A DNA stretch of 64,000 nucleotides from Thermoproteota archaeon (GCA_027491415.1 JAOZFH010000063.1:1-64000), one strand, 5' to 3'. Positions 32,161-51,200 are shown, counted from the stretch's first letter. The notes: generated by a model from the letters alone, not told the origin. Numbers and translations: made by a program.

Positions 32161-32550
32161 CTATTCGGCGGCTCCCCTCACGCTCTCGTCCGAGCCCACA
32201 TAGACCAGCCTCCCGGCCAGCGCCACGGCCCCGTGAACGGAGTCAAAGAATCTCAGGCCGTACCTATCCCTCAGCTCGGCGGCCAGGGCGGCGTGGGAGA
32301 GGCTTAACCCCGGGGACTCCACCCTGGCGAACGTGGAGATGACAGTCTGCATGGCGCCCAGGGCCCTCGCAATGCTTGAGTCGTCGAGCCCGGCGGACCT
32401 CATGACGAGGGCCGCCTCCAGCGGCGCGGCCGGGGACAGATTTATCACCACCCTCCCGGCTCGGGCCTCCTCTAGCAGCGCCATGACGGCGTAGTGAGGC
32501 CCACCCCCCTCCTAAGGCCGCAGAGGAAGTCAGTCTCCACCAGGACCCTC
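32161..32550 (-). pseudogene. vapC: frameshifted vapC
   Basis: VETDFL in one frame; LEAALV...FFDSVHGAVA...GSD in another. Confidence 0.75.
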
Positions 32551-32951: not shown

Positions 32952-33338
32952 ATGTCGAAGAGGGAAGAGGTCGAGCACCTCCTCCGGAGGTCGAGGGAGT
33001 TCCTGGAGACGGCCCGGCTCCAGCTGGACAGGGGATTCTACGGGCTGGCCGTGTTCAGCCTGGAGCAGTCCCTGCAGATGTTCCTCAAGGCGAGGCTCCT
33101 TGAGAGCGGGGTGTACTACCCGAGAACCCACAGCCTTAGGAGGCTGCTGGAGATGCTGGCAGAGGCGTCGCCAGACTCCGCCGAGGCCCCGCGCGGGGTC
33201 CTGAGGAGGTTCATGCTGGAACTCGGCGCGCTCGAGGATGCCTACATAACCTCCAGGTACGTTCCCAGAGAGTTCAGGAGGGAGGACGCCGAGAGGCTGA
33301 TGGCCGTGGTCGAGGAGGTGATGAGGGCTGTCTCGTGA
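32952..33338 (+). CDS. HEPN domain protein
   Basis: EQSLQMFLKA...PRTHSL...YITSRY. Confidence 0.93.
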   Translation: MSKREEVEHLLRRSREFLETARLQLDRGFYGLAVFSLEQSLQMFLKARLLESGVYYPRTHSLRRLLEMLAEASPDSAEAPRGVLRRFMLELGALEDAYITSRYVPREFRREDAERLMAVVEEVMRAVS

Positions 33339-34013: not shown

Positions 34014-34715
34014 ATGGGGGTGGCAAAAATGTCCTACAAGAAGATGTTATTGATCTCTATTTCAACACTACTTATAACTTTCACAGGTATTTTTATCGTA
34101 TCTGCGGCTGTTGGCCCTCCGATCGATGTTGGTGGGAAAAACTGTGCTACAAGCCTCTGCACCAGTCGGCTTCACAGAACAGGCGTAAACGGGTATATAT
34201 CAGTCTCTAACCCTTACGTCCCCTCTGGAGAGTTCACGGCGCGCTACTTTGGCATAAAGGATGGCTCTGGATTCATAGGCTTCGGATGGGGGAAGGGGTA
34301 TAACCCAGTATGCGGATACTTGAACTCTCCCACGGCCTACATAGACTATGTGAAGGTGAAGAAAAGTGGTAGCGAATACGATTGCATTGTTATAGGGGAG
34401 GTATCCACGACGTCTCACAGATTTGCCCTCGCCTTTGATATAGACGAGAGAAGATGGGAATTCTACCTCGACGGCTCCCTAGTCCACACCTTGCCGAGTG
34501 GCATCGCCCCGAAAGATGACGATGGAAAAGCCCTTTCTTACTCTGAATCCGGCGCTAATGCGGTCTATCCTGACATGAGCGGTCACTTCTACGACCTGTG
34601 GTACTACGAGGGTGAGTACGGAGGCTGGTGGGACGCCTTCTATCCAGTGGACGGCTCCGACTACTACAAAGTCAACAAAATAGCTAATTGGGAGTTTTAC
34701 GTCGTGAGGGGGTGA
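34014..34715 (+). CDS. secreted beta-sandwich protein, glutamic-peptidase-like (paralogue of 43783..44481)
   Basis: signal peptide; GVNGYI, TARY, FGWGKGY, GHF, EFYVxRG shared with the paralogue; AT-richer. Confidence 0.75.
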   Translation: MGVAKMSYKKMLLISISTLLITFTGIFIVSAAVGPPIDVGGKNCATSLCTSRLHRTGVNGYISVSNPYVPSGEFTARYFGIKDGSGFIGFGWGKGYNPVCGYLNSPTAYIDYVKVKKSGSEYDCIVIGEVSTTSHRFALAFDIDERRWEFYLDGSLVHTLPSGIAPKDDDGKALSYSESGANAVYPDMSGHFYDLWYYEGEYGGWWDAFYPVDGSDYYKVNKIANWEFYVVRG

Positions 34716-34720
34716 GGGAT

Positions 34721-35917
34721 ATGCGCGTAAAAATTGCGGTCTTCATGGCCGTGATTGCATCCCTAATCTTGCTCGTGTCCTTTTACTTCCTATCTCAGCA
34801 CCAGCAGGCGGCTCCACCGGTCGAGGGCCCATCCATCGGGCCCAGGTCTACAGCACCCACACTCCAGCCCGCTCAGGTTACTCCACCGAGCGGTAACTCG
34901 TCGATCGAGCCCGGATCTATAGTCCCGATATGGGCTCCCCCTGACGAGGACTACTGGGATCTCATACCGACCGAGATGGGGCTGGAGGCCTGGAGGAGGC
35001 ACGGAGGGGTCCTCCCGACATATGTGCCGAAGGGCCTGAGGTTCTTGGGCGTCGCCTGCTACTACGGGATGGAGGGCGCGAGGCAGGGAGCGCTGGATGA
35101 CCCCGAGCTGATCGTCCTAGAGTACGCCCTCGAGGGCAAGAACGTCTCGATCCACGGGAAGGTCTCCAGGCTCCTCCCGGGGCCGGACGTGGTCGTGAGC
35201 ATGGACTGGGGGGGGCTCGTCGGGAGGGGGAACGTGACCCTGGTTCGGGGGTGCCCCATGGAGGTTAGCCCCCCGGGGGAGGGCGTGGACTACTGGACGC
35301 GCCGGTGGACGACCCTGCCGGCCGCGGTCACGTTCCAAGTGGGCAACCTGACCTACACGATCTGGGGCCTGCTGCCGACGGGGGAGCTGGTCAGGATGGC
35401 GGAGTCCATGATCCCGGAGTCCGGGTGCAGGCCGGAGGACGTGAGGCCGGAGGTCCGCAGGGTGAGCGGGCGGGTGATACCGGTCGAGGACGTCCCGGAC
35501 GTCTTCGGCCTCAACCTCAGCCTGCCGAGGGTTCTGCTGGGTAATCTGGAGCTAAGGTTGGCGGTGCAGGACACCCTGGCTGGCGAGTCTCTGAGGGAGG
35601 TCACCCTGTTCTACTGCGACCACGAGTGCGGCCCCTACTCTCCCCCCGCCCCGTGGAACCCGCGAGCGCCAAACCTGACCGTCCTGATCGACACCCTCCC
35701 GGTCAACGCCACGGCCATGGAGTGGTTCCAGTACTCGATCGAGGTCGACGGGGTAAAGCTCTACGTCTGGCCCGAGGGGGCCTACCTACCGAACGGCGTC
35801 ACATTCTGGTTCGGAGGGCTGCACTACGAGATCCAGGGCTACTACCCCATCAAGGACCTCCTGGAAGTTGCCCGCGAGATAATAGCGCTTGGCTCGACGG
35901 CTCCGCCGGGGGAGTGA
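34721..35917 (+). CDS. N-anchored extracellular protein with two DUF4367-like repeats
   Basis: TM helix; LPTYVPKGL; two ...LxYxIxGxxPxxEL endings; paralogue of 42463..43776. Confidence 0.8.
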   Translation: MRVKIAVFMAVIASLILLVSFYFLSQHQQAAPPVEGPSIGPRSTAPTLQPAQVTPPSGNSSIEPGSIVPIWAPPDEDYWDLIPTEMGLEAWRRHGGVLPTYVPKGLRFLGVACYYGMEGARQGALDDPELIVLEYALEGKNVSIHGKVSRLLPGPDVVVSMDWGGLVGRGNVTLVRGCPMEVSPPGEGVDYWTRRWTTLPAAVTFQVGNLTYTIWGLLPTGELVRMAESMIPESGCRPEDVRPEVRRVSGRVIPVEDVPDVFGLNLSLPRVLLGNLELRLAVQDTLAGESLREVTLFYCDHECGPYSPPAPWNPRAPNLTVLIDTLPVNATAMEWFQYSIEVDGVKLYVWPEGAYLPNGVTFWFGGLHYEIQGYYPIKDLLEVAREIIALGSTAPPGE

Positions 35918-36049
35918 GCGAGCTGCTGGGTCACCATTAGGGTACGACTAGCGGCCTGGGCCCCCCTCGCCTAACCTTTTTCTGATGCTTAGGAGCCCTA
36001 GACCCGTCTTATTACCTCAAGCGTTGACCTCCAGCCCCAACGCTTTTTT

Positions 36050-36535
36050 ATGCCTTGGAGTTGTGACGAGATGGCTCACAGGGGACAACCAGCAGGCCGC
36101 TTGCCCGCGGCCTGGGCCCTTAGGTGCGGCCTGCACGACTGCCCGGGCTTCCTCGAGGATGTCCTCGGGTTCTTTCAGTCCGTACTGGGCCTCCTATGGC
36201 TCGAGGCCCTCCTCGCCGCGTCCTCGGACTGGCTGAGGGGCAGGCCGCTGCTGGCGTTCGCCCTGGGCTCCGCGGCCCTCTACTCCGTCCTCATGTCCCC
36301 GACCTCGGCCACGTTCCTGCACAAGGCCCTCGCGTATGGGAGCCGCTGGCCCCTAGAATATCTCGTTGGCCTCTTCCTCCCTCCGACCGTACTCTCGATC
36401 GCCTGGGGGTTCGGCGCCGCGGTCACATCCGGGCTGATCGGGATGGAGAGGGAGAGGAGGGAGCAGGGATACGTCATCACTGCCCTGGCGGCCCTGGCCG
36501 CCGGCCTGTTCATCTTCCTGATCACCCCACTGTGA
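36050..36535 (+). CDS. small multi-TM protein, family A
   Basis: WLEALLAASSDWLRGRPLLAFALGS shared with 38290..38778; start uncertain. Confidence 0.75.
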   Translation: MPWSCDEMAHRGQPAGRLPAAWALRCGLHDCPGFLEDVLGFFQSVLGLLWLEALLAASSDWLRGRPLLAFALGSAALYSVLMSPTSATFLHKALAYGSRWPLEYLVGLFLPPTVLSIAWGFGAAVTSGLIGMERERREQGYVITALAALAAGLFIFLITPL

Positions 36536-36655
36536 AGACCCCTGGGGCGCGCCGACTCCCTCTCGGGGCGCGTGTGGCCAGCGGGAACTTTCTGAGACCT
36601 CAGCCCGCCCGTTTCTTACCTCAACCGCGCGACGACTCGGGGGCGCGGGGAGGTG

Positions 36656-37867
36656 TCACGCCACGACCGCCAGGAACAGGTGAATATTCTCCTCGTCGAG
36701 GATCCTGACGCCCCTCGGATACCTCCTGTGGGGCTTCCCCGCCTTGACCTCCACCCTCAGGCCGTCCGCGAGGGCGTCGACCTCGTGCGAGTTCCGGTAG
36801 TAGAAGACCTCGCCGAACCTCCTGAGGAGGTGGGCCTGGACCACCCACTCGTACAGGGCCCCCTCCAGGAAGTCGGTCACGGTCCAGATGGACATAGCCC
36901 CGGCCGTGAAGGGATCCAGGAAGAAGAACTTCCTCTCCTTCCGCCACACCACCCTGCCGCCCCTCCTCAGCATCGCGCTGCCCAAGACCATCAGGGCCCT
37001 CAGCACCTCCACGTACTCCCTGACGGTCCTGTGGGACACGGAGAGGTCGGAGCCTATGGAGGCGTAGGACACGGGCGAGGGAGCCTTCCTCAGTATGGAG
37101 GAGATGACCCCCCTGGCGAGCTGGGGGTCCCGGCCGGCCCTCAGGATCTCTCCCTCGAGCGACCTCACCGTGTACTCCACCGCCCTGGGGTCTCGGTTCA
37201 CAGAGAGGGGGAACCCACCGACCTCCAGATAATCCAGGAACAGCTCCCTTATCTCCCTGGACTTTGGGAGGAGCCTGGCCACGTCCCTGTCCAGGTCCCC
37301 CGTAGTCCTGACCTCCACGCCCATAACCCCGAGGAACTCCCTGAAGGAGAGGGGCCACGCCACCACCTCCCTACCCGAGCCCATCCTGCCCGGGAACAGC
37401 TCGGCCTCCCCCCTCAGCCTCAGCGACGAGGAGCCGGTCAGCACCAGCACGTCCCTCGAGAAGAAGCCCGCGTCCACGTACCCCTTTATGACCCTCCACC
37501 ACCCCCTCAGGCTCGTCACCTCGTCCAAGAACAGGTAGCTGGACCTCACGCCGGAGGCCCTCCTGAAGGAGTGGTACTCCTCCAGCATGGCCCTCAGCGA
37601 GCCGGGATCCGGGGCCAGGTCGAGGTTGATGTAGAGGATCGCCTCCGGCCTAACTCGCCTCAGGAGCTCGTCTATTAGCAGGTGAATGCCGGTCGTCTTG
37701 CCCACGAGCCTCGGTCCGATCAGGATGTTGAGGGAGTAGGGCTCCAGGCTTATCCGATCGAGCCAGGCGGGCCTCCACCTGATCTTCCTCCTCCTCCACT
37801 CCGTGATCACGGGGCTCTCCTTACCCACCCACCAGGGGTTGAGGAGGGGCAGGACGTCGGTCGGCAC
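36656..37867 (-). CDS. AAA_14-type ATPase with DUF4143/PD-(D/E)xK tail
   Basis: GPRLVGKTT, FLDEV, TGSS, PLSFREF, EVD...VEVK. Confidence 0.92.
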   Translation of the reverse strand: MPTDVLPLLNPWWVGKESPVITEWRRRKIRWRPAWLDRISLEPYSLNILIGPRLVGKTTGIHLLIDELLRRVRPEAILYINLDLAPDPGSLRAMLEEYHSFRRASGVRSSYLFLDEVTSLRGWWRVIKGYVDAGFFSRDVLVLTGSSSLRLRGEAELFPGRMGSGREVVAWPLSFREFLGVMGVEVRTTGDLDRDVARLLPKSREIRELFLDYLEVGGFPLSVNRDPRAVEYTVRSLEGEILRAGRDPQLARGVISSILRKAPSPVSYASIGSDLSVSHRTVREYVEVLRALMVLGSAMLRRGGRVVWRKERKFFFLDPFTAGAMSIWTVTDFLEGALYEWVVQAHLLRRFGEVFYYRNSHEVDALADGLRVEVKAGKPHRRYPRGVRILDEENIHLFLAVVA

Positions 37868-38289
37868 TTGATACTTTGACTACCAAATAATATATAAATA
37901 GTTGGGAGAGTTGGTAACATGTAGTTCCCCGCAAGCGCGCGCCGTGTCGCGCGGGCTGCGCCCGGAACCTCGTCGGTTACGTCCGTAGCCGCGGACGACC
38001 CGGATATCCACTTAGGACCCGCAGCCTCCCGCGCCCCTTTATCAGCCACCGGGTATAGTTTCGCCAGGATGGTAGGCAGGGTTGCCTCCAGAGCCCTCGC
38101 TCTGGCCCTGGCGACGCTCTGAGGGCTCGGCTGCGCCCTCTTCGCCTCTTCGGGACCTCCAGCTTGGCATGAGAAGGTCGTTCTCGAGGTCACAAAGACT
38201 GACCTAGGGGGGAATCGGCATCAAACTCAGGCTGGGTGGGTGGAGATTCTGGGCTAACACTTTAGTGCCTTCTGAGGTGAGTAGAGGCG

Positions 38290-38778
38290 GTGCGTGAGGT
38301 GAACCGCCGCCAGCCGGCCGCCTGTGCGCTCACGATCCTGCTCCCGCCAGCCGCATGGGCCTTGACCTGCGGCTGGCTGGACTGCTCGTTCTTCCTCGTG
38401 GAGCTGGGAAGGCTCCTCCAGCCGATCCTCTCGTTGATCTGGCTCGAGGCCCTCCTCGCCGCGTCATCGAGCTGGCTGAGGGGCAGGCCGCTGCTGGCGT
38501 TTACCCTTGGCTCACTTGGCGTCTTCTCCACGCTGACTTCTCCCTTCCTGTGCCCAGAACTCCGCTGGATCCTGGCCGAAGGCCTTGCGGAGTCCCTGCG
38601 GGATCTCCTGGGCACTCCGCTCCTCCTCCCGCCCGCCCTCCTCTCCATCTCCTGGGGCCTCGGCGCCGCCGTGGCATCCGGCCTCCTTGGAGAGGGAAGG
38701 AGGGAGGCTGGATATGTGTTAACAGCCCTCGTCGCAGTCGTCGTGGCTCTTTTCACGTTCATGTTGGTCTGGGATTAA
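38290..38778 (+). CDS. small multi-TM protein, family A
   Basis: paralogue of 36050..36535. Confidence 0.78.
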   Translation: MREVNRRQPAACALTILLPPAAWALTCGWLDCSFFLVELGRLLQPILSLIWLEALLAASSSWLRGRPLLAFTLGSLGVFSTLTSPFLCPELRWILAEGLAESLRDLLGTPLLLPPALLSISWGLGAAVASGLLGEGRREAGYVLTALVAVVVALFTFMLVWD

Positions 38779-38859
38779 TCTCCAGGCCGAGCCTGTGCTG
38801 AGACCTGTCCCTGAGTCAACCACGGTAGCTCGCTGAACTAGGTGAAGCTCGGTGTCCCT

Positions 38860-39297
38860 TGCCCTCGCGCGTCTCGCGCGGACGGCCAAGACCTCACCTG
38901 GCTGAGCCATATCACATGGGGGGTCGCACTGCGGGTGGACCTAAACGTGGCCCGTGGCCACAAGCTACGTCTGCGAGCCCGTCTACGGCTGGGAGGCGCG
39001 GCAGGACGGTTGGGGCAGTCCCCACCCAGCGAGCGACTACGACCGCTACCACGTGAGGCTCTGGAAGGTCCACAAGTGGTGCTACGGCAGGGTCGACGTG
39101 GTGGGGCAGGCCCACGTGGACACAAATTTCCCTCACAGGGCCGTCTTATTCGAAGCCGCGGAGGAAGAGGCCGTCAAGGCCTTCAGCCTCTAACTCCCGG
39201 CTACGAGGACTGGATGCCGGAGGGGGAGGTCATCTGGCTGGGCAACTACGACAAGGGAGGTAACGGCTGGGCCGACATCATAAGGCACGATGGGTAA
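38860..39297 (+). pseudogene. C-terminal fragment of an LssY_C-like protein, frameshifted
   Basis: RYHVRLW...GQAHVD...PH...FEAAEE, then EGEVIWLGNYDKGGNGWA. Confidence 0.6.
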
Positions 39298-39383
39298 CCT
39301 CAGCCGCCTTCTTCCTCACTATTTTCTGAAAAAACTTAGGAACTTCGGTCAAGCTTATTACTTCGGCCCGCTTTCAGATCCGC

Positions 39384-39884
39384 GTGGGCTGGAGAGACGC
39401 CTCGGCCTTCCTCTACATCTGGCTCGCCCTGCTCCTCTTCATGGCCCTCGCCCCTCCCCTGGCGGGCCTCCTCGCCAGGTGCAGAACCGCCATGGGAGTC
39501 GCCTGGACCCTGACTGGCGACCTCGCGTACCGTCCTCCCGGGCTCCTCTTCACCGTCCCCGAGTCCCTCAGGCTCGCGTACGAGCTGTCCACCCTCCTGT
39601 TCGTCCCTCCCATCATAGCCGCCCTGGCTTCCCTGTCGAGGCCCCTTAGGGACGAGCCTGCAGCGGCCTTCCTCCTTGGGTTCCTCACGTTCTCCCTTAG
39701 CCCGTTCAGCTGGCTGCGTGCCAGGCCGCCCTACCACATCGTCATGCTTGCCGTCTCCACCATCTGGGGCCTGGGGTGCGCATCCCTGACCAAGGCGGAG
39801 GATCCAAGGGACCCCTGGGCTCGCGTGGGGTACCTCGTCCTCTTCATCACCTGGTGGTTCTCCCTCGGCGGCCTGATGGACTAG
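39384..39884 (+). CDS. small multi-TM protein, family B
   Basis: WRD...WLAL...PP...LR.E..AAF.LG...WGLGCA...D*. Confidence 0.8.
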   Translation: MGWRDASAFLYIWLALLLFMALAPPLAGLLARCRTAMGVAWTLTGDLAYRPPGLLFTVPESLRLAYELSTLLFVPPIIAALASLSRPLRDEPAAAFLLGFLTFSLSPFSWLRARPPYHIVMLAVSTIWGLGCASLTKAEDPRDPWARVGYLVLFITWWFSLGGLMD

Positions 39885-40063
39885 GGGCCCGTCTCGGCTC
39901 TCCGTCCTCCTGAGTCTCGATGACCTGGTCTCTCCTCTCCGTTCGGTAGACCAGTCGGTTGAGGCAAGCCTGTGGCGACTCATTGGGGCGCGATCCGTTC
40001 CATCGGTTTGGAGCGGAACCAGCCCCCGGAGACGTCTTATTGCCCGGCGGCCCCCCTCCCGAC

Positions 40064-40524
40064 GTGTCCTGGAGGGACGAGCCCGGATTCTTCTACACCT
40101 GGCTGGCGCTCGCCGCTCTATTGACCGCGGCCCGCCTGGCCCTCGAGTTCAGGTTGCGCGACCCCTTCTTGGAGGCCGTTTACTATCTCTCCATCATGCT
40201 GTACCTCCCTCCGGTGTTTGCCACCCTGGCCTCCCTCTCCGGGCCCCTCAGGGGAGAGTCCCTGGCGGCCTTCACCCTCGGCATCTACACATACTCCGCC
40301 TCGCCCGTGCCCGGGGCTCCGCTCGGCCTCCTGGCCTGCCTCGCCCGCCGGTGCGGCTCGTTGAGCTGGCCCACGTATCCCTAGCCTTGGTTCTGGACCT
40401 GATCTGGGGCCTAGGCTGCGCCCTCCTCGCCTCGTCAAGGAGGCCCTGGGACCTCAGGGCCCTCCCAGCCTATCCAGTCCTGTTCCTCACCTGGCGATAT
40501 GGTCTGACCCTATTGATCGACTAG
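40064..40524 (+). pseudogene. family B membrane protein, frameshifted
   Basis: VSWRDEPGFFYTWLAL; later IWGLGCA and LTLLID* in other frames. Confidence 0.75.
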
Positions 40525-40635
40525 AATCCTAATTCTGGTACGTGGATGGCGAGGGCCCCACGAGTCCAGGATCTCCCCAGGTATCGGAACCGCCACGATT
40601 TTTTATCACCCAGGCGCCTCAGAAGGTAGATCAGC

Positions 40636-41028
40636 TTGGGACTGGAGAGGGCCGACTTCCTGAGGGCCAGGGCTGCCGCCTTCTTGGAGGCCGCCAGGTC
40701 GGACCTCTCTAGGGGAGACTACGACCTGGTCCTCTTCCACGCCGAGCAGGCCATCCAGCTGTGCCTGAAGCACCTGATATTCTCGAGAGTAGGGGACTTC
40801 CCAAAGGCCCACTCCCTAGTACGCCTGATAAGGGAGGCCCTGAAGCTGGGGGGAATCCCTGGCCTGAGGGAGCTCTACGAGGAGAACCTAGAGATGATCT
40901 ACCTGCTGGAGGAGGCCTACATCTCCTCCAGATACCTTCCCCACAGCTACGGCAGGGACATAGCCGAGAGGGCCCTGAGGTTCGCTGAACACGCTCTGGG
41001 GGTGTTGGGGTGCCTGAGGAGGGCCTGA
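40636..41028 (+). CDS. HEPN domain protein
   Basis: EQAIQLCLK...PKAHSL...YISSRY. Confidence 0.93.
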   Translation: MGLERADFLRARAAAFLEAARSDLSRGDYDLVLFHAEQAIQLCLKHLIFSRVGDFPKAHSLVRLIREALKLGGIPGLRELYEENLEMIYLLEEAYISSRYLPHSYGRDIAERALRFAEHALGVLGCLRRA

Positions 41029-41369
41029 GCCTCGTGGATCTCGAGCTGGAGAGGCTGAGGGAGTGGAGGAGGTACTTGGAGGATCCGCTGAGGTACGCCC
41101 GGAGGATGAGGGAGGTGGCTAGGAGGGTAGACCCAGAGGCCAGGGTCATCCTATACGGCAGCAGGGTGTCTGGCGAGGCCAGGCCCGACAGCGACGTTGA
41201 CGTGCTCGTGGTAACGAGGGTGGCGGGGGACGCGTGGGCGAGGGCCAGGCTGAGGGTTGAGATAGCCAGGGAGATCGGAGACTACACGCCCTTCGAGATC
41301 CACATAGTCACGCCGGAGGAGTTCGAGCGCTGGTACGGCAGGTTCATCGGAGACCACATTGAGGCGTGA
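41010..41369 (+). CDS. minimal nucleotidyltransferase
   Basis: LYGSRVSG...DSDVDVLVV...PFEIH. Confidence 0.93.
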   Translation: MPEEGLSLVDLELERLREWRRYLEDPLRYARRMREVARRVDPEARVILYGSRVSGEARPDSDVDVLVVTRVAGDAWARARLRVEIAREIGDYTPFEIHIVTPEEFERWYGRFIGDHIEA

Positions 41370-41612
41370 GGCACGCACCCCAGCCAGGAGGGGCAAAAGA
41401 CTGTCTCCTCCTGGACGCCAAGAGCAGGATATCCAGCATCTCTCGTAGCAGCCCGCCGACTTCTGATGTTGCTATGGAAGTCAGAAGTTAGGTGATGGGT
41501 ATAGGGACCAGCCATGCGGCGCGCGAAGAAGTCCCGAGTCGGCGATGCTGCTCGCGACGGTAGACCCCCCAGTCGCGGTCCATGAGGGGGCTCAGCCCAG
41601 CCTGGCCACGGG

Positions 41613-42272
41613 TCAGGCGGCCAGGGCGCCCCAGTAAAGTGCCAGGGCCCACGCCACAGTGACTGCCGCGAGCAGGGCCCCGATCCCCCTCCTCTCCTCC
41701 CCGAGGATGCCCGTGAGCATTGAAGCCGAGAGCCCGAAGGCCACGCCGGGGATCCCCCCCCAGATGAGGAAGAATATGGCGGCCTCGAGGGTCCCGCGGC
41801 CCAGGGTGAAGTCGACGAGGCCCTGGGACGCGAGGGCGGAGAAGAGCGCGGGGCCCGCCAAGACTCCCGCGGTCAGGGGCCTCCCGTAGAGGTCCTTGTG
41901 GGTGGCTAGGAGGAGCCAGAGCGTCCAAGACGCCACAACGATAGGCTGCAGCAGGTCGTAGGATGGGCACACTGTCGGAGGGAGTCGGCAGGCGCCGAAG
42001 CCGTACCTGTAGGCCCAGTAGATGGGAGAGACAGCCAGGGTGGCCAGCCACAGCGTTAAGGAGGTGTAAAAAGCCCTCCCTCCTATCGGGATTGACCTCG
42101 AGCGGGCGACCGAGGCAGCGAGGGGCGCGGCTACCACGTGGGTGCAGAGGAGGAGCGCCAGGGGGGCGGGGCCCCTCACCCCAACTCTAAGCCAGAGCAG
42201 TAAGGGAATGGGTATGGCGACCAGCCATGCGGCCAAGATTAGATGGAATAGGCTTAACCCATCCTCACTCAC
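41613..42272 (-). CDS. multi-TM protein distantly resembling family A
   Basis: C-x5-C loop, LYGRPLTA, GILGEERRGIG. Confidence 0.72.
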   Translation of the reverse strand: MSEDGLSLFHLILAAWLVAIPIPLLLWLRVGVRGPAPLALLLCTHVVAAPLAASVARSRSIPIGGRAFYTSLTLWLATLAVSPIYWAYRYGFGACRLPPTVCPSYDLLQPIVVASWTLWLLLATHKDLYGRPLTAGVLAGPALFSALASQGLVDFTLGRGTLEAAIFFLIWGGIPGVAFGLSASMLTGILGEERRGIGALLAAVTVAWALALYWGALAA

Positions 42273-42462
42273 TTGATACCCCCCATTCCTAGCGTACGTA
42301 CGCGGATAAGTTAAAAAATAAAAAACACAACAGGAAATACCATGTTAATAAAAGCTCTTAATTCCCCGATCACATCCCTCAGTTCTTCATCGACCTGAAA
42401 CCCTGGGATCTATTAGAGAGTGGGTCAAACAGAATAAACACCTGTCGGCTCCAGGGGCCCCA

Positions 42463-43776
42463 CTACCCACCTATTATCGACTCGGCCACCCTTAGGATCT
42501 CCTCGAGCGGGTAGTACCCCTGGATCGTGTAGGCGAGCCCCTTGAACCAGAATTCCACCCTGGTCGGGTAGTACTCGACCCTGGGCCACACGTATACAGT
42601 CACACCGTCGATCACGATCTCGTCTGCAGACTCCGGGGGGACGAGCCCGCCCTCAGACAGAGCCTCCACCCAGATCGTCAGGTTCTGAGCGTCGGGGACC
42701 CAGGGCGCCGGGACGTTGTACACCGCGCACGGGTGGTCCGCGTAGGCCAGGATTACCTCCCTGACGGCCCACTCCCCCGCCCCGATCTCCCTCACCATCG
42801 CCGCCTCGAGCCTCAGCCCATCCGGCACGTACGTTGGGAGCACCAAGCCGGCGCCCTCCGGCACCGGCTCGCCCGCCGCCCTGTGCCTATCCAGCTCCCT
42901 CTTCAGCGCCTCCATGGCTTCCTGTAGCGAGACGAGGTACCCCTGAACCCTGTAGACCTCCGGCCTCAGGGTCGACTTGGGGCAGCCCTCGGGGGGAGCG
43001 ATGGACTCGATCACCCTGTACAGCTCCCCCTCCGGGAGGTAGGCCTCCACCGTGTAGTACAGGTCTCCCACCTGGATCTCTGCGTACCCCGGCTCTAGAT
43101 CTGGGACCCCGAAGTAGAGAGACGCGGTCGTCGTGCATGTGATCCTGCCTAGGAAGGGCGTGATCCGGTAGGGGCAGCCTCTGATTGTGCCATCATATCC
43201 CAGCTCCAGGTTCATCTTGCCCCTGCCCGCCCTCAGAACCATCTCTGGGCCACTCATCGCGTAGGTGACGTAGGGGATCGCGAGGGTCACGTTTCGACCT
43301 GGGAACGCGTAGACTACCGCGAACACTTCGGGAACCCCCTGCTTCTCCGCCTCTCTCAGCTGATTCATCGCTTGGCTGTGGTTTCCCGCCCCGACCACCA
43401 TGACCCCAACGAGCCTCATCCCTCCTGAGTAGGAGGGGAGCCTGACTCCCAGATCCGTCAGGGCAGGCATCGCCTCGTCGGCTGGCAGGATGAAGCCCGT
43501 CTCCAGCGGGGGTACCCAGGAGGACGTTGGGCAGGACTCCCCAAGAGCCTTCAGAGCTGAGTCGTTGAGCCGCAGCCAGGGAGGCTCCTCCTCGGCGTCA
43601 TTGGCCAGCTGGGGCTCTGAGGATTCAGAGGGTTGGGTCATGCACCCAGGGGCAGATGGCGTCGGGGACAGCCTCCTGACGACCTCCGAACTCCGGCGCG
43701 CGACGTGAAGCAGGCAAGCCAGCGCGATTAGAGAGAACGCAAGTGCGATTAAGAGTAACCTGCGACCATCAGCCAT
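42463..43776 (-). CDS. N-anchored extracellular protein with two DUF4367-like repeats
   Basis: shares RGCP, RPEV.RV.G, APW.P.A.NLT, DGV..YVWP, FWF.GL.Y.IQGYYP with 34721..35917. Confidence 0.82.
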   Translation of the reverse strand: MADGRRLLLIALAFSLIALACLLHVARRSSEVVRRLSPTPSAPGCMTQPSESSEPQLANDAEEEPPWLRLNDSALKALGESCPTSSWVPPLETGFILPADEAMPALTDLGVRLPSYSGGMRLVGVMVVGAGNHSQAMNQLREAEKQGVPEVFAVVYAFPGRNVTLAIPYVTYAMSGPEMVLRAGRGKMNLELGYDGTIRGCPYRITPFLGRITCTTTASLYFGVPDLEPGYAEIQVGDLYYTVEAYLPEGELYRVIESIAPPEGCPKSTLRPEVYRVQGYLVSLQEAMEALKRELDRHRAAGEPVPEGAGLVLPTYVPDGLRLEAAMVREIGAGEWAVREVILAYADHPCAVYNVPAPWVPDAQNLTIWVEALSEGGLVPPESADEIVIDGVTVYVWPRVEYYPTRVEFWFKGLAYTIQGYYPLEEILRVAESIIGG

Positions 43777-43782
43777 GCCACA

Positions 43783-44481
43783 TCAACCTCTCTTGACGTA
43801 AAATTCATAGTTCGTTACTTTCTGAACGTAAAAGCACGTGCCGCTCTCATGCTTTGATAGCACATCCCAAAGGCACCAACCTCCGCAGTTGGGTATGCTG
43901 AAATAATGTAAAAGTTTGAAGTGGCCGTAAGCATTTATCCTACATCCGCAGTTAGAGTCGCAAGATATCTCAGATACACCACGCACAAAACCTTTCTCAT
44001 AATTTGGCCCAGAACCGGCGGGTAATCTGAGCTTAGTAACACCATCGATGATTATCTTCCATTTATTTATAGGTTGGTCAAACCATATCCGGATGTGATG
44101 ATGCCCTGAAGAAGCTGTTCCTAGAACGTAGTACCCGTAAGTTGTCCCTCTCCTATGTTCCGCATAAAATGTAGGCTCTGTTAAGCAACCAGCGGGCGAG
44201 TATCCCTTACCCCAGCCAGCTTGTATCCACCCGCCGTTCTGAATTAGTAGGTACCTAGCCGTTTTATCGTAACTCGAACAGTAGATCCCCGACGGATTGT
44301 AGGTATAGATATAGCCAGATACGCCCTGTCTGTCAATTCTATCGATGCAAGTAGTAAGTTCGCAGTTAGATCCGTAATACCATGCGGGAGTGGAATATAC
44401 TTCCAAGACAATACCGCTGAAGCTAAGAGTAAGCAAATAAACTAGGCATACCACGTAACTTTGTCTAAAGCTCGCGGTCAT
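43783..44481 (-). CDS. secreted Cys-rich glutamic-peptidase-like protein
   Basis: signal peptide, WIQAGW, downstream VSE; AT-rich. Confidence 0.75.
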   Translation of the reverse strand: MTASFRQSYVVCLVYLLTLSFSGIVLEVYSTPAWYYGSNCELTTCIDRIDRQGVSGYIYTYNPSGIYCSSYDKTARYLLIQNGGWIQAGWGKGYSPAGCLTEPTFYAEHRRGTTYGYYVLGTASSGHHHIRIWFDQPINKWKIIIDGVTKLRLPAGSGPNYEKGFVRGVSEISCDSNCGCRINAYGHFKLLHYFSIPNCGGWCLWDVLSKHESGTCFYVQKVTNYEFYVKRG

Positions 44482-44607
44482 CTATTATCTATGTTTTCTC
44501 CAAATTTTCCTTTTAACCCTTACGCTTGCGCGCTCTAGATGGACGAGATAGAAGAGAAGAGAATAGAGGTTCTGGTTCTCTTCTCGCGGTCTCAGAGAGA
44601 GGAGGAC

Positions 44608-44735
44608 TCAGCTGGGCAGGGACGTGAAGGAGACCAGCCACCCGCCGAACAGGAGAAAGAATCCCACGGCGGCTCCGACATCCCTAGGGTCCTCTGACCT
44701 GGCCAGGAGCGCGCAGCCTAGGCCCCAGAGCAGTT
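44608..44735 (-). pseudogene. 3' fragment of a family B membrane gene
   Basis: LLWGLGCALLARSEDPRDVGAAVGFFLLF matches IWGLGCASLTKAEDPRDPWARVGYLVLF. Confidence 0.75.
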
Positions 44736-44775
44736 CAGGGGTCAGGGGGGAGCTCCTCACGAGGGTCTTCAGGGA

Positions 44776-44848
44776 GCTGGAGGGCTACGGGGATAGGAAG
44801 AGGTGGGAGGAGGCGCTGGAGGAGTGCGAGAGGAGGGGCCTCCTCTAG
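44776..44848 (+). repeat. 73-bp dispersed repeat, copy 2
   Basis: 67/73 identical to 5640..5712 (minus strand). Confidence 0.85.
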
Positions 44849-44954
44849 GCTGCTCGCCACGCCCCCCGGGCGACGCGCCGAGAGGCTGTCGGAGACCCGA
44901 GCGCTCCAACCCTCCGCCAAGCATAACGAGGTTGTGGGGGGCCTGCAGAGACTC

Positions 44955-45347
44955 TCAGTCCACCATGAGGAAGGGCACACGCCATGCGAGGAGGAGCAGA
45001 GAGTAGCCCAGGAGTGCGCTCAGGTCCCAAGGCCTCTCGGACCTAGCAACGAGCGCTGATCCGAGGGAGAAGGGGAGGCTCAGGGCGAGCCCTATGAGGC
45101 CCCAGCGGATCACCCCGAAGGGGGCGAAGAGGTAGGTGAGGAGACCCAACAGGAGGGCGAGGGCTGGCCTCCTCCTGATTGGCCCTGTGAGGCAGGCCAC
45201 GGCCGAGACCGCCGGGGGGACGTAGAGGATCGTCAAGACGTAGGACAGATCCCGGAGGATGGGGTCTACGCCCGTGACGCCCAGCGCGAGGAGGGCTATG
45301 AGCGCCAGCCAGGTGTAGAAGAACCCCGGCTCGTCCCTCCAAGGCAC
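44955..45347 (-). CDS. small multi-TM protein, family B
   Basis: VPWRDEPGFFYTWLAL...MVD*. Confidence 0.8.
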   Translation of the reverse strand: MPWRDEPGFFYTWLALIALLALGVTGVDPILRDLSYVLTILYVPPAVSAVACLTGPIRRRPALALLLGLLTYLFAPFGVIRWGLIGLALSLPFSLGSALVARSERPWDLSALLGYSLLLLAWRVPFLMVD

Positions 45348-45429
45348 GCTGATGGCAGAGCAGGTCAAAGTAATAATTCTTTCTCAGAAAAACCTGGAGA
45401 AACAAAAAATGTAGGGAAGGGTTTGCGAG

Positions 45430-45564
45430 TTAACCATCGCACCTTGTCCTAGTGGCCCAGCCGTCGCCTCCCTCATCGTAGTTCCCCAGCCAGACCACCT
45501 CGCCCTCAACCACCCAGTCGTGGTAGTAGGGGGTCTCGAAGGCCTCCCTGAACTCCTGTGCCAT
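45430..45564 (-). pseudogene. orphan C-terminal tip of the LssY_C-like protein
   Basis: PYYHDWVVEGEVVWLGNYDEGGDGWA...DG* matches PGYEDWMPEGEVIWLGNYDKGGNGWA...DG* at 39195-39297. Confidence 0.8.
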
Positions 45565-45621
45565 TAGATCGGTGCTCTCAGGCGCACTCTCCTCTCAAAA
45601 ATGGGGGAGGGTTGGGGGCCC

Positions 45622-46239
45622 CTACCCCTGGCCCGGAACCACCTCGAAGTCGTAAGTCTCGATCAGCGTGCCCGGCTTCGAGAGGGCGCCCCTCATTATC
45701 ACGTTGATCCTGTAGCGGCCCGGGGCGACTGCTTGGCCCACCTCCAGCGTGGCGTTGAGGACTTTCACCTCCCCCTCTTTCAGGGTGAACGCCGGGGAGG
45801 GCCGAATCGCCAGCCTGATCGCGGAGTCCCCCTCCCCGGCGACCAGCTCGAGTGCCTCGCCCTCTACCGGCGCCTCTGCAGAGAGGTTCACCTCCAGGGG
45901 CCCGGGGAACTTGCCAGGGGTCAGCCCCTCAGGAGGCGGGAGGTCCCTGAGTCGCGTTAGCGTTATCTCGGGCCTGAAGTCGCACTCCGGCTTGAAGCAG
46001 TAGACCTTGATGACGAAGGAGACCGCCTCGCCCTGCCTCACCACGCTGGGGAGTCCCTCGACGCTGGTCGTCATCAGGGATATCGGGGTCTCGGGTATGT
46101 CCTCCGGCGGGATGGTGGGAGGCGCCTTCGTGGCCTCCGGGCTGGCGGAGCCGAATGGGTACTGGATCCAGAGACCTAAGGCCAAGAGGGAGATGGAGGC
46201 CGCGGTCAACAGTAGGAGGCTAGACCGCCCCATGAGCAT
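45622..46239 (-). CDS. N-anchored extracellular Ig-like protein
   Basis: TM helix; VRQGEAVSF, APGRYRINV; start overlaps the upstream stop (TGATG). Confidence 0.75.
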   Translation of the reverse strand: MLMGRSSLLLLTAASISLLALGLWIQYPFGSASPEATKAPPTIPPEDIPETPISLMTTSVEGLPSVVRQGEAVSFVIKVYCFKPECDFRPEITLTRLRDLPPPEGLTPGKFPGPLEVNLSAEAPVEGEALELVAGEGDSAIRLAIRPSPAFTLKEGEVKVLNATLEVGQAVAPGRYRINVIMRGALSKPGTLIETYDFEVVPGQG

Positions 46240-47021
46240 CACCCCCAAATCTTTTCCCCGTCGCCATAATCACATGTGGGATTCGTATACTGTCCTACTT
46301 GGATGTAATTAAATCCAAGCCTTACAATGTCGTAGTTCTGGTTGCAGTTATCCGTGGGCTCCCTGTAGGCGTAGCCCTGCTCGGCCTGCCTGAAGTAGGA
46401 GGACCCCCTGGGTTTGTACGAGATGGCCGGGTTAAAGTAAACGGGCTTAAGCCAACCCCCGTACTCCCCACCCTTCTCAGCTATTGAAGCAGGTGCGTGA
46501 TATCCCGTGGAATCCACGTCAAAGAACTCAGTGCCCAAGTACTCATCGCCCCCCTTGACAAACGACCAGTATCCGTCGCCCACGTGAATTGCCGAGTAGT
46601 ACATGTAGGTGTAGGTGGGGCCTGCTGATCCGTCGGGGCCCTTTCTTACGACATAATCGCCCCCAGCTGGGGGGAGGTAGCAGTAAAACCACGCACCTCT
46701 TGGCCGCTCGTGTGCCGTGAGGTAGCCGACTTGGATCCAGTATCCATTGGCTAGGTGAGACCCTATCCAATAATAGTGCGCTTCTGGGTCTGGGACGTTG
46801 TAGTCCGGAACTATGTACACCCTGGTTTTGAACCCCTCACTCCAATACGTGGTTGTCCCTCCCCTGGCACCGACAGATGGATCAAGCATTCCTGCCAAGT
46901 TAAGAGGATTCTCTTGACGGTCTAGGGGTTGCGTTGAGGTTTGGGCAATAATAGAGGCTGTAACCAGGGGAGAGAGGAGACCTAAAATCCCCAAAACTGC
47001 CAAACACCTTCTCTCATCCAT
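46239..47021 (-). CDS. secreted glutamic-peptidase (G1/neprosin)-like protein
   Basis: signal peptide; YWIG...YWIQVGY...SIAE. Confidence 0.75.
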   Translation of the reverse strand: MDERRCLAVLGILGLLSPLVTASIIAQTSTQPLDRQENPLNLAGMLDPSVGARGGTTTYWSEGFKTRVYIVPDYNVPDPEAHYYWIGSHLANGYWIQVGYLTAHERPRGAWFYCYLPPAGGDYVVRKGPDGSAGPTYTYMYYSAIHVGDGYWSFVKGGDEYLGTEFFDVDSTGYHAPASIAEKGGEYGGWLKPVYFNPAISYKPRGSSYFRQAEQGYAYREPTDNCNQNYDIVRLGFNYIQVGQYTNPTCDYGDGEKIWG

Positions 47022-47070
47022 ATCTCCACCCCGCAGGCTCCTCGCCTGCAAGAGTTTTGGTTAAATAATC

Positions 47071-48335: not shown

Positions 48336-51200
48336 ATGGGTCAGAGGGTCAGAACATTCCTGGCCTCTCTCCTCATCTCGCTGGCCGCCTCTCCGTCGGC
48401 TGCGGTCGGGCTCGCCCTCTCCAACCCCGTGCATGTGTCCCTCTCAGTCTCGCCCACCGCGGTCGAGCCGGGAGGCTCCGTGAGCATCTCAGCGTCCGCA
48501 TGGTCCTCCGACCCCTCGCTCCGCGTGGAGCTTACCGTGCTCGTGCAGGGGCCGGGGTTCTCGAGGACGCTGCACTCGGGCGGCGCGAGCTGGTCGGGCA
48601 CGTGGACGCCCCCGGCCAGGGGGAGCTACACCGTGTGGGCCCTCGCCGAGGGCAGGGACTCCTCTGGGAGCCTGGCGGGCTCGGCCACCGCCTACGCGAC
48701 CGTTGTCGTGACCGACCAGGCGGGCGGCGGGTCAGGAGCGGTGGAGACAGGCTCGTCCGACGTCTCGGGCGGCTCGACTGGCTCAGGCGGACTCCTCGGC
48801 AAGATAGAGGGCCTGGCCAAGTCGGCCTGGTCCAAGGTCAAGGGAGCCCTGTCTCAGGCGAAGGAGGCCGTCGAGGGTGCGCTCTCCTCCCTGGGAGAGG
48901 TGCTCGGGGAGTACGCGGACGCCCTCGTGGATGGAGTGGGTTGGCTGGTCGGCAAGGTCAGGGGGGCCCTGAGCGAGGTTGGGGAGGCGATCTCAGGGGC
49001 CCTGGACTACCTCAGCGGCAGGACGCGCGGGCTGGTGGAGGAGGCCCTCTCGATGGCCGCCGGCGCCTACTACGACGCGGTGTCGGCGCTGTCGGACGCC
49101 GCCAGCGAGGCCGACTCCCCGGCCGCCACGTTCGTGCTCTCGGCCGCCGAGGCGATAGTCGGGGCCCCCGGCGGGACCGCCCTCGGCTTCGCGGTCGGGT
49201 CCGAGGGGTGGTATCAGATCACCGCCAGGGTGGCGGAGGTCCTGTCGGGCCTGGACGCCTGGCTCGCGAGCTGGGCGGAGGAGAACCTGCCGGAACCGCT
49301 GGCCGACCTCGTGGAGTTCGGCGCGGCCCTCGACTCCTCGATGCGCGCGGGCGCGGCCTGCCAGCTAGCCGGACTCCTGGAGGCCGCTAACTTCCTCTCG
49401 TTCGGCTTCCTCGACGCCGTGAGGGACGCCCTGGCGGGGGCGGGCGCCGAGGGCGGCCCGGGGCTCGGAGAGGCCCTCAAGGAGGAGCTGTACACCCAGA
49501 CCTTCCCCGGCCAGATCCTGGGGCTGCTCGAGGAGGCCGTTGGCCCGGGGAGGAGCTGGAGGGAGAGGGCCAGGGCCGCCGGCACCCTCACAGGGCTGGC
49601 CCTCCTGGCGGCCGCGACGGCGGGCAGGAGGGACTACAGGCTTGAGTCGAACCCGGAGGCCAGGGCCCTCCTGGAGGAGATCAGGGCGGAGCTGGGTGGC
49701 AGAAAGGCCGGCGCCATCAAGAGGAGGGCCGTCGAGGTCGCTGAGCTGTTCGGGGAGGAGGACGCGATCAGGTACCTCAGGGGCGACGCCAACTTCGTGA
49801 GGCTGCTCGTGAAGAAGAGGAAGGTCGGAGACCGCATCGTCGAGAGGATCTACCTCAAGCTGAGTTCCGACGAGATCAAGAGGCTCGGCCTCAAATCCGA
49901 AGAGTACGCGAACCTCGTGTTCAGGACCGCCGACGGCAGGACCTTCGAGCTCAGCCTGAAGGTGCCGAAGGCGATGAGCAACGGGAAGATGGAGGTGGCC
50001 CTCCCATACTTCTCCGAGCTGCACCCGGAGCTGGGCGAGCAGCTGGTGGAGATCGAGGTGAGGCCGCCGAGGGACGTCGGGTGGCTGATGCAGGTCACGG
50101 ACGACAGGGGGTACAGGAAGCTCAAGGTGAGCCCGGAGTACGTCAGGATGAAGGCCTCCCTGGGGGACGAGCTGGCGCCGGACCAGCTGGTAAGGGTGGA
50201 GGTGGACGGCCGCAAGTACTACGCGATCCTGAGGAGGTCCGGGGACGACCTCACGCTCACCCTGCCGAGGGACGTGACGGCGGAGCACCACGTGATCAGG
50301 ATCGAGCGGGCGGGGCTCGAGGAGGTCTTCCCGTCCGAGCCGGTGCCGGGCCTCAAGCTGGAGTACGCCGGCGATACCCTGTCCATCAGGGTCGCGGCAG
50401 GGGCGGGCGGTGGTCCCCTGACGCTCGCCGAGGGGGTGAGGCCGGAGCTGGACCCCTACACGGGCGAGCTGAGGCTCCTGTTCAGCGTCGACGGCGTCGA
50501 GTTCGCCCTAGAGGCGGATGGAGATGTGAGGGTCAGGGTCTCCAAGAGGTGGGTCGAGGTCGAGAGGGTCAGGGTCGCGGGCAGCGAAGCGTCCATCGTA
50601 ACCGGGCTGGGCGAGATCTCACTCGGCAGAGGGGTGAGAGCCGTACTCTCCACGGTCGAGGGAGATCTCACTCTGAGCGGCCCGATAGCCGTGCCCGACG
50701 AGATTCTAGAAAGTCCCGAGATTCAGGCAGGGATCTCAGAGTATGTGAACTCTCTAAAGGGCGGAGAGGAGGGCACTTTTCAGGCGGAACTGGGCAAACT
50801 TGGAGAGAAAGTGACCAAAAAATACTTTGAGCTTAGAGGGTTTGAGTTCGAGAAGCACGGAAAACCTACTTCCCCAGTTGATGGTTTTGTAATAGAGAAT
50901 GGGATAAGGATCCCAGTAGAGGTCAAGACCTCTGCCGTTGACGACTTCTCAACGCTGATCCGCAGGGCCATAAGGGGGGATGTGAGGTCTAACGGGGAAG
51001 TTAGAGGCGGCGCGCTCTACAAGTACTTCAGGAGCCACCCTGAGGTACCGTACGGATACGCCGTGGCGGTGAAATACGAGAGTGGGAGGCTGCTCATACT
51101 CATAAGGAAGGTCGTGAACCCATTCAGAAGAACCGCCAGCGCCCGTCCACCGACGCGTCCGCCGGGCAGGACCTACCTTCCCGGGAGGATACCGAGGTGA
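48336..51200 (+). CDS. secreted multidomain polymorphic-toxin-like protein with C-terminal PD-(D/E)xK nuclease
   Basis: signal peptide, Ig-like domain, amphipathic and hydrophobic helices, beta-rich repeats, then GKLGE...VDG...VEVKTS. Confidence 0.82.
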   Translation: MGQRVRTFLASLLISLAASPSAAVGLALSNPVHVSLSVSPTAVEPGGSVSISASAWSSDPSLRVELTVLVQGPGFSRTLHSGGASWSGTWTPPARGSYTVWALAEGRDSSGSLAGSATAYATVVVTDQAGGGSGAVETGSSDVSGGSTGSGGLLGKIEGLAKSAWSKVKGALSQAKEAVEGALSSLGEVLGEYADALVDGVGWLVGKVRGALSEVGEAISGALDYLSGRTRGLVEEALSMAAGAYYDAVSALSDAASEADSPAATFVLSAAEAIVGAPGGTALGFAVGSEGWYQITARVAEVLSGLDAWLASWAEENLPEPLADLVEFGAALDSSMRAGAACQLAGLLEAANFLSFGFLDAVRDALAGAGAEGGPGLGEALKEELYTQTFPGQILGLLEEAVGPGRSWRERARAAGTLTGLALLAAATAGRRDYRLESNPEARALLEEIRAELGGRKAGAIKRRAVEVAELFGEEDAIRYLRGDANFVRLLVKKRKVGDRIVERIYLKLSSDEIKRLGLKSEEYANLVFRTADGRTFELSLKVPKAMSNGKMEVALPYFSELHPELGEQLVEIEVRPPRDVGWLMQVTDDRGYRKLKVSPEYVRMKASLGDELAPDQLVRVEVDGRKYYAILRRSGDDLTLTLPRDVTAEHHVIRIERAGLEEVFPSEPVPGLKLEYAGDTLSIRVAAGAGGGPLTLAEGVRPELDPYTGELRLLFSVDGVEFALEADGDVRVRVSKRWVEVERVRVAGSEASIVTGLGEISLGRGVRAVLSTVEGDLTLSGPIAVPDEILESPEIQAGISEYVNSLKGGEEGTFQAELGKLGEKVTKKYFELRGFEFEKHGKPTSPVDGFVIENGIRIPVEVKTSAVDDFSTLIRRAIRGDVRSNGEVRGGALYKYFRSHPEVPYGYAVAVKYESGRLLILIRKVVNPFRRTASARPPTRPPGRTYLPGRIPR

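Follow-up and report, generated by a model that had tools for sequence, protein, structure and literature searches.

We analyzed a 64,000-nucleotide stretch of DNA from a Thermoproteota archaeon (GCA_027491415.1 JAOZFH010000063.1:1-64000, hereafter the window), which codes for three operon-like gene pairs in its 31-47 kb region. Each pair combines a gene for a predicted secreted protein (S1, S2 and S3) with one for an N-terminally anchored extracellular partner (A1, A2 and A3, respectively). Our preferred reading, to which we assign a probability of about 0.5, is that the S proteins are glutamic-peptidase-fold proteins without a prodomain, and that the membrane-tethered partner holding them is an inhibitor, an immunity protein or a prodomain acting in trans. 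The evidence that carries it is the fold of the S2 model, which is closest to neprosin, and a predicted S2-A2 complex in which the partner covers the putative catalytic face. In the literature searched, we found no account of a glutamic-peptidase-like protein paired with a membrane-anchored partner.

Organization of the gene pairs

On the plus strand, S1 (34014-34715) codes for a secreted 233-aa protein, probably a β-sandwich, and its TGA stop is separated by 5 nt from the ATG (34721) of A1 (34721-35917; alternative TTG start at 34688), the N-terminally anchored two-domain partner. The other two pairs lie on the minus strand. S2 (43783-44481) codes for a secreted protein of 232 aa and is followed, 6 nt after its TGA, by the ATG (43776) of the gene for the 437-aa anchored partner A2 (42463-43776). 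S3 (46239-47021) codes for a secreted protein of 260 aa from its ATG, or 270 aa from an alternative TTG at 47051, and its stop overlaps the start of A3 (45622-46239), an anchored partner of about 205 aa from a family distinct from A1/A2, as TGATG. A first-pass annotation of the window, made from the sequence alone, had placed three secreted genes at 34014, 44481 and 47021, each tightly trailed by a gene for an N-anchored protein, with the left block mainly on the plus strand and the right block mainly on the minus strand; open reading frames (ORFs) were found at those positions, and both the junctions and the strand layout agree with it. Judged by eye, the N-termini of S1-S3 are basic-hydrophobic and of the kind expected of Sec signal peptides, and those of A1-A3 comprise one hydrophobic helix followed by a Pro/Ser/Thr-rich stalk. 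Another partner-type gene, A4 (31012-32067, minus strand), codes for an N-terminally anchored protein and has no S gene beside it. We rejected the explanation that these are chance ORFs, because of the paralogy among them, orthology at 84-97% identity in a related genome (G004) and the folded models.

A neprosin-like fold predicted for S2

The AlphaFold2 model of S2 has a predicted local distance difference test score (pLDDT) of 78.5 and a predicted template modeling score of 0.75, with residues 22-49 poorly defined. A Foldseek search with this model returned neprosin entries as its top five matches (E-values 1.5e-7 to 7.3e-7), followed by scytalidoglutamic peptidase (SGP). In VIA-align comparisons, neprosin (7zvb_A) again tops the list (Z 19.4; root-mean-square deviation 2.5 Å over 191 residues), and the model also superposes on the eqolisins (SGP, 2ifr_A: Z 16.6, 2.8 Å, 169 residues; 1y43_B: Z 11.7), a Bacillus protease (8xai, Z 15.9), YncM (15.1), the mucin-type peptidase HC7 (14.0) and GH16 glucanases (Z ~13). 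The G1- or neprosin-like fold anticipated in the first-pass annotation is thus supported for the S2 model, and S3 probably shares this fold. The fold alignments of S2 begin at residue 37-38, directly past the predicted signal peptide, and so leave no room for a prodomain.

The same matches raise the alternative that the S proteins are concanavalin-like enzymes or binders active on glycans, such as those of the S-layer or exopolysaccharide, with the partner regulating or positioning them: GH16 glucanases, PL7 lyases and a lectin-like protein match the S2 model with Z-scores of 10-14. We regard this as unlikely, given that the glutamic peptidases score clearly higher (Z 16-19 versus at most 13), that no GH16-type acidic pair on one strand is seen by eye in the family alignment, and that the pattern of a Gln or Glu followed by a later Glu, with its spacing, suits the G1 family.

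The predicted S2-A2 complex

We co-folded S2 (residues 31-232) with A2 (residues 85-437), using our own shallow alignments of 17 and 4 rows. The interface score ipSAE (interaction prediction score from aligned errors) was 0.91, 0.86 and 0.93, and the highest-scoring of the 3 controls gave 0.00. In the calibration set, 116 of 157 solved complexes attained this mark, as did 2 of 215 mismatched pairs; with alignments of our own as input, these counts are only roughly valid. The runs have at least 74% of their contacts in common, the partner pLDDT is at least 84 and the predicted interface comprises about 160 contacts. Binding between S2 and A2 thus finds support in silico.

On the S2 side, the predicted interface is formed by alternate residues of the strands 73-81, 85/87, 106-110, 129-135, 142-146 and 167-171, plus W202. 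Residues 85, 87, 167, 169, 171 and 202 are among them, and together these positions amount to one whole face of the sheet, Q87 and E171 included. Additionally, the S2 strand 148-154 pairs with residues 371-381 of A2, and a conserved W87-x-P89 motif of A2, followed by a further Pro in three of four alignment rows, lies within the predicted interface. The modeled geometry resembles that of the neprosin prodomain over its cleft, which does not by itself prove inhibition. The first-pass annotation had offered effector-inhibitor or ligand-receptor pairs as alternatives: because A2 is predicted to lie over the face with the putative catalytic residues, the former appears to fit better and the latter less well.

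The position of the W87-x-P89 motif at the start of the A ectodomain, together with the fact that neprosin cleaves after proline (PMC9343461), bears on the possibility of an enzyme-substrate pair, wherein the secreted peptidase sheds or matures the anchored protein at its Pro-rich N-terminal segment. We consider this very improbable: both folded domains of A2, and not just a linear segment, take part in the interface, and the partners found without an S gene would have no processing enzyme.

Candidate catalytic residues

In the alignment of 18 S-family sequences, the only invariant positions are G53, G89, E171 and W202 (S2 numbering), and position 87 is Gln in 8 members, Glu in 7 and Gly in 3. 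The SGP chain (residues 1-206) aligns to residues 37-232 of the S2 model, and the SGP dyad, which we take to be Q53/E136, falls at about 89 and 172 on it, adjoining Q87 and E171. S3 has the motif YYWIGS...WIQVGY, and its Q107 and E192 are kept in a 30%-identical relative. The spacing from Gln to Glu is 84 in S2 and 85 in S3, inside the range of 81-95 given for G1 enzymes in Table 1 of PMC3009609. In S1, the corresponding segment reads GFIGFGW, with Gly in place of the Gln of the WIQ motif. Hence, S2 and S3 are compatible with the suggestion of the first-pass annotation that WIQAGW/WIQVGY and a later Glu fit the G1 dyad, and S1 is not. Since this Gln...Glu pair is kept with an eqolisin-like spacing, S2 (candidate dyad Q87/E171) and S3 are probably glutamic peptidases; S1, having lost the Gln, is probably inactive or altered.

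The anchored partners

The model of A2 (pLDDT 73.4) features a helix at residues 2-36 and two α/β domains. A1 and A2 are paralogs (34% identity, E = 4e-50), and a second, internal-repeat alignment between them at E = 3e-4 indicates an internal duplication. The first-pass annotation had described them as paralogs with tandem DUF4367-like repeats; the paralogy and the repeats stand, and membership in DUF4367 is not supported. The DUF4367 profile (PF14285) scores 14.6 bits on A2, against a cut-off of 22.1, and covers residues 412-434 only, with no match in A1; it was likewise not recovered in any of 5 further partners at E ≤ 0.1, or in the genome itself at E ≤ 1. A language-model look-up (Atlas) offered DUF4367 as a lead with a score of only 0.88-0.89.

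Foldseek with the A2 model returned nothing at E ≤ 1e-3. In an exhaustive structural search, the matches for the A2 C-terminal domain included the MucB C-terminal domain (Z 8.0, 22% identity), Tsi3 (Z 7.9), RseB (Z 7.7, 17% identity), TplEi (Z 6.1) and PsbP/Mog1-like proteins (Z 6-7), all of which lie within the background range stated for the search tool.

A2 and A1 are identical at 11 of 67 predicted contact residues versus 104 of 286 residues elsewhere, a difference that is confounded by surface exposure. This stronger divergence of the contact residues, and the fact that a variable island houses more than one paralogous pair, each diverged from the others, could also be expected of polymorphic ligand-receptor pairs in kin or self recognition, with a secreted S protein binding its cognate A protein on sister cells without any catalysis. 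This appears distinctly unlikely to us, as the invariant Glu and the Gln/Glu position maintained across distant family members suggest chemistry over recognition alone.

Distribution and pairing in related genomes

We surveyed 43 genomes of the phylum. The S1/S2 family was found in four of them (G000, G004, G012 and G014), the A1/A2 family in five, and the S3 family in three, a number that includes a broken G004 copy and a fragment of 80 aa in G009. The adjacency of S and A genes recurs in three genera and in both gene orders: the S gene comes first in G014 and the A gene in G012, and a fourth pair (S4-A4) is present in G004, where the A4 ortholog is preceded by a further S-family gene. The S proteins of these recurring pairs share only about 28% identity with S2. 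By hhalign, the partner from G012 is a homolog of A1/A2 (probability 92%), and the G014 partner and A4 share only a domain-start motif with them (4% and 7%, respectively).

The survey of pairings also recovered partners on their own. Two genus-mates are examples: G002, a 97%-complete genome, has adjoining A1-like (80% identity) and A3-like (68% identity) genes without any S-family match, and in G003 a fragment of A3 leaves no room for S3. In the window, A4 lacks the S4 gene seen in G004. In the latter genome, S4 is bracketed by direct repeats of 181 bp (91% identical) that derive from the 5' end of the A4 coding sequence (L013, 1184-1364 and 2246-2423); on this comparison of the two sequences, the single repeat copy of the window, with no S4, reads as the footprint of a recombinational gain or loss of the S gene. 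The first-pass annotation had held that partners found routinely without secreted genes would speak against paired function. They do occur in G002, G003 and at 31012-32067 of the window; this leaves an effector-immunity relationship standing, because orphan immunity genes are expected under that model. Indeed, the orphan partners and the stronger divergence at contact residues fit an immunity-like role.

Apart from these pairs, we observed that in G004 the S3 ortholog is split into three ORFs by in-frame stops and the A2 ortholog into two (L006, 3910-4692 and 6878-8192), which reflects either gene decay or assembly errors. Relative to the window, G004 also has an extra stretch between A2 and a 219-aa membrane protein (L006, 8497-11392). 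This stretch contains an ORF of 329 aa and a gene for a small membrane protein, as well as a fifth partner gene, whose 392-aa product shares 42% identity with A2 and which is not preceded by an S gene. The island is thus rearranged between genus-mates.

Codon composition

The first-pass annotation had noted that the S genes are AT-richer and their partners GC-rich, and this contrast is borne out and is seated at the codon level. The GC content at third codon positions (GC3) is 0.58, 0.46 and 0.61 in S1, S2 and S3, as opposed to 0.85, 0.82 and 0.87 in A1, A2 and A3; most neighboring genes have values of 0.80-0.92. The 1.78-Mb genome has 1134 ORFs of 200 aa or more, with a mean GC3 of 0.80; in this set, S2 ranks sixth from the bottom, and S1 and S3 fall within the lowest 2.8% and 4.9%, respectively. 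In G012 and G014, which are low-GC relatives, the composition of both S and A genes equals that of their surroundings. The deviance of the S genes in this high-GC genus may stem from their arrival as cassettes ahead of partner genes that were already in place, or from a selection for rare codons that keeps the amount of the S protein below that of the A protein.

Two adjoining ORFs without a Pfam match elsewhere in the window (60085-62218, minus strand; 362 and 353 aa; 39-40% GC) have GC3 values of 0.39 and 0.42, the lowest in the genome, and are probably foreign DNA.

A separate sequence family

S1 and S2 are paralogs (34% identity, E = 1e-33). S3 is unrelated to them by BLAST (E = 0.27 and 0.10 to S1 and S2), and is linked to them solely by profile comparison, with a probability of 50-58% and WIQVGY placed on WIQAGW. 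Thus, the first-pass grouping of the three S genes as one repeated type stands for S1 and S2, and is left with this profile link for S3.

All six S and A proteins fall below every Pfam and NCBIfam cut-off, PADLOC gave no hits on them, and the genome has no PF01828 (G1) match. For profile comparison with the known families, we used two bacterial PF03080 (neprosin) proteins, which came from 2 of 201 genomes searched, and eleven actinobacterial PF01828 domains; the latter family was matched in 14 of 301 genomes, of which one, unpublished, was left unused. PF03080 was also sought in five bacterial genomes and not found. In the top-scoring local alignments of these profiles, WIQAGW falls on TIEVGW in the bacterial neprosins and on leQlGT in the G1 domains, neither of them significantly. 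A language-model look-up returned a neprosin-family cluster, and a cluster with 12% PF01828 members at a score of 0.90, which we treat as leads only.

When 1.84 billion representatives were searched exhaustively with the family profile, 23 proteins were recovered at E ≤ 1e-3, 4 of them at E ≤ 1e-10; the family is therefore small, and it is unnamed. A Pfam scan of 22 of these hits (P0007 excluded) found no domain in 17, most of which are secreted proteins of about 215-250 aa. One S-family protein of the representative library, P0016 (335 aa), has its own C-terminal hydrophobic helix, making it a self-anchored variant of the fold. Other searches added little: word-indexed homolog searches gave one match for S2, two for S3 and three for the family alignment, and a scan of genome contigs with the degenerate pattern W-I-[QE]-x-G-W-x-K-G gave 119 stretches, with family members in 3 of the 80 examined. 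Two metagenome scans and one viral scan yielded no S-family relatives, and sequence searches of the Protein Data Bank with S-family, S3-family and A-family queries returned nothing relevant.

Evidence against an enzyme held by its partner

Several observations weigh against the reading of the S proteins as peptidases held by their partners. First, sequence comparison does not recover the family membership that the fold would suggest. S1-S3 have no Pfam match at E ≤ 1 and no NCBIfam match, and a threshold as loose as E ≤ 10 brings up neither PF01828 nor PF03080 in any of the 18 S-family members. With hhalign, the S1/S2 family reaches a probability of 2% and the S3 family 0.3% against the two bacterial PF03080 proteins, and 0.5% and 0.1%, respectively, against the 11 actinobacterial G1 domains. 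Since these profile comparisons gave only 0.1-2%, we set the S family apart, on sequence grounds, as a separate family of the glutamic-peptidase fold that is neither G1 nor G3 by profile.

Second, the candidate active site is uneven. Position 87 is Gly in three members, namely S1, P0008 (closely related to S1) and one other; the equivalence of Q87 and E171 to the known dyads was drawn from the linear register and the interface pattern, not from a residue-level superposition; and a Gln/Glu mixture at the assistant position is unexpected because a Glu/Gln swap at this residue abolishes activity in neprosin and SCP-B (PMC9343461). The degeneracy of S1 and the mixed position argue for caution about catalysis.

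Third, the co-fold covers one pair, and in such a model an inhibitor, an anchor and a substrate would look alike. Fourth, the differing codon usage of S and A requires a separate explanation if the pairs co-evolved in place. Fifth, a distant family member in a metagenome-assembled genome titled as Thermoplasmata (L076) has no partner-like gene in the 4.2 kb of sequence covered. Finally, Laminin_G_3 lectin-type domains occur in 3 of the 22 scanned profile hits, and these three are multi-domain proteins, so a non-catalytic binding role is possible.

These lectin-type domains also favor a surface-display complex, in which the partner would be a mere membrane dock for a soluble lectin-like or enzymatic β-sandwich serving adhesion or nutrient capture, and would neither inhibit it nor confer immunity. 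The N-terminal anchor and stalk, the extent of the predicted contacts and the edge-strand pairing all suggest a stable complex; S1, without the Gln/Glu residue, retains its partner, in G004 as well; and the membrane helix of P0016 indicates that anchoring of this fold occurs. Against this, the predicted interface buries Q87 and the only invariant acidic residue, so that an enzymatic or lectin site there would be blocked, and the persistence of partners without S genes in G002 and G003 is hard to explain. We accordingly hold a simple dock to be possible, if doubtful.

Comparison with known systems

Neprosin (MEROPS G3, PF03080; 7zvb/7zvc), to which the S2 model is structurally closest, is a secreted β-sandwich with a general-base Glu and a Gln/Glu assistant on the concave sheet; its dyad is E188/E297, that is, Glu/Glu (PMC9343461), and the spacing in plant neprosin is 109. 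The S family has Glu at the assistant position in the 7 members noted above, as neprosin does, in contrast to the Gln of S2 and S3 and the Gly of S1, and the spacing of 84-85 likewise departs from that of neprosin. Latency in neprosin is conferred by a prodomain within the same chain, an all-β domain that covers the cleft with a plug residue (PMC9343461). The predicted A2 clamp would act similarly, with the difference that there is no prodomain in cis: S1-S3 match neither PF03080 nor the activation peptide, and the cover is a separate, membrane-anchored product with α/β domains.

The eqolisins (MEROPS G1, PF01828), which comprise scytalidoglutamic and aspergilloglutamic peptidases, are likened to the S proteins by the superposition of the S2 fold and by the Gln...Glu spacing in S2 and S3, and putative archaeal members of G1 are already in print (PMC3009609). 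Unlike them, the S proteins lack a PF01828 match, be it in S1-S3, the 18 family members or the genome, S2 has no propeptide by the model alignment, and S1 lacks the Gln.

With the effector-immunity pairs of type VI secretion systems (Tse3-Tsi3, TplE-TplEi), the S-A modules share adjacent, coupled genes, diverged paralogous pairs, orphan partners and a partner predicted to lie over the active face of the enzyme; Tsi3 and TplEi are among the weak, background-level matches of the A2 C-terminal domain. In contrast to those systems, the present modules are archaeal, would be Sec-exported to judge from N-termini read by eye, and have partners anchored by an N-terminal helix; the likeness is therefore one of functional analogy and not family membership. 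The C-terminal domains of MucB and RseB, the best matches of the same A2 domain at a Z of about 8 (again within background), invite a comparison with DUF4367 and with LolA-like regulators of secreted hydrolases. One such regulator, GerS, is a tethered LolA-like protein that acts on the amidase CwlD and has a Bacillus ortholog carrying DUF4367 (bioRxiv 10.1101/2025.01.13.632879). The sub-threshold DUF4367 hit on A2, with none in the 5 other partners or the genome, sets the partners apart from this group.

A proposed mechanism and its implications

If our preferred reading of a held enzyme is right, each module would be a two-gene operon whose products are exported via Sec. The first gene would specify a soluble, prodomain-less β-sandwich protein with the glutamic-peptidase fold of neprosin (G3) and the eqolisins (G1), and the second, translationally coupled to it, a type-II-anchored extracellular protein. 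As modeled for one pair, the two α/β domains of A2 would clamp the concave sheet of S2, including its putative catalytic residues. The partner may thus be a membrane-tethered inhibitor that holds the enzyme latent at the surface of the producer, doing in trans the job of the missing prodomain; it could also shield the cell from its own or its neighbors' enzyme, like an immunity protein. The analysis establishes how the genes are ordered and joined, their paralogy and contrast in composition, the fold of the S2 model, the conservation of E171 throughout the family, the recurrent pairing and the orphan partners; the S2-A2 complex and its interface are predicted, and we infer export, proteolytic activity, inhibition and any role in antagonism.

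Glutamic peptidases are described as a small and poorly studied catalytic class whose role in archaea is unknown (PMC3009609). Should the proposal be true, an extracellular protease would be kept latent by a second protein tethered to the membrane, a novel mode of control, and, if the partners are immunity proteins, they would point to a novel form of antagonism between archaea that requires no contact. A bolder version, which we offer as tentative, is that these are the first archaeal Sec-exported protease-toxin/immunity modules: a Pfam-invisible branch of glutamic peptidases without a cis prodomain, with a rapidly diversifying membrane-anchored clamp serving both as the zymogen lock of the producer and as immunity against neighbors, where S genes would travel as low-GC cassettes and settle ahead of resident partners, with the orphans as a record of past encounters. 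The predicted complex names residues amenable to testing, namely Q87, E171 and W202 of S2, and the W87-x-P89 motif and strand 371-381 of A2.

Surrounding genes

The first-pass annotation had the two gene blocks converging on a HEPN-MNT pair, and Pfam confirms both genes: HEPN at 40636-41028 (plus strand; E = 5e-26) and MNT at 41010-41369 (plus strand; NTP_transf_2, E = 2.7e-12). G004 has no counterpart of this pair between the same flanking genes, and we therefore rejected a functional link to the S-A modules; the pair resembles an insertion (indel) with no relation to them. The window has another HEPN gene at 32952-33338 (plus strand), and PIN-domain genes at 28863-29279 and 32161-32484.

Two families of small polytopic membrane proteins, all without a Pfam match, are interleaved with the S-A modules. 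The first set lies at 36050-36535 (plus), 38290-38778 (plus) and 41613-42272 (minus), and the second at 39384-39884 (plus), 39959-40384 (plus) and 44955-45368 (minus); one family has a common WRDEPGFFYTWLAL-type N-terminus. Both families are kept in G004, where they are arranged differently, and they may be part of the same island function. Within the block of these small membrane proteins, on the opposite strand, is a gene for an AAA_14/DUF4143 ATPase (36656-37867, minus strand), which is 97% identical in G004. Adjoining the S3 module is a gene for a 954-aa protein (48336-51200, plus strand) without a Pfam match, which has a signal-peptide-like start and stretches rich in Gly, Ala and Ser.

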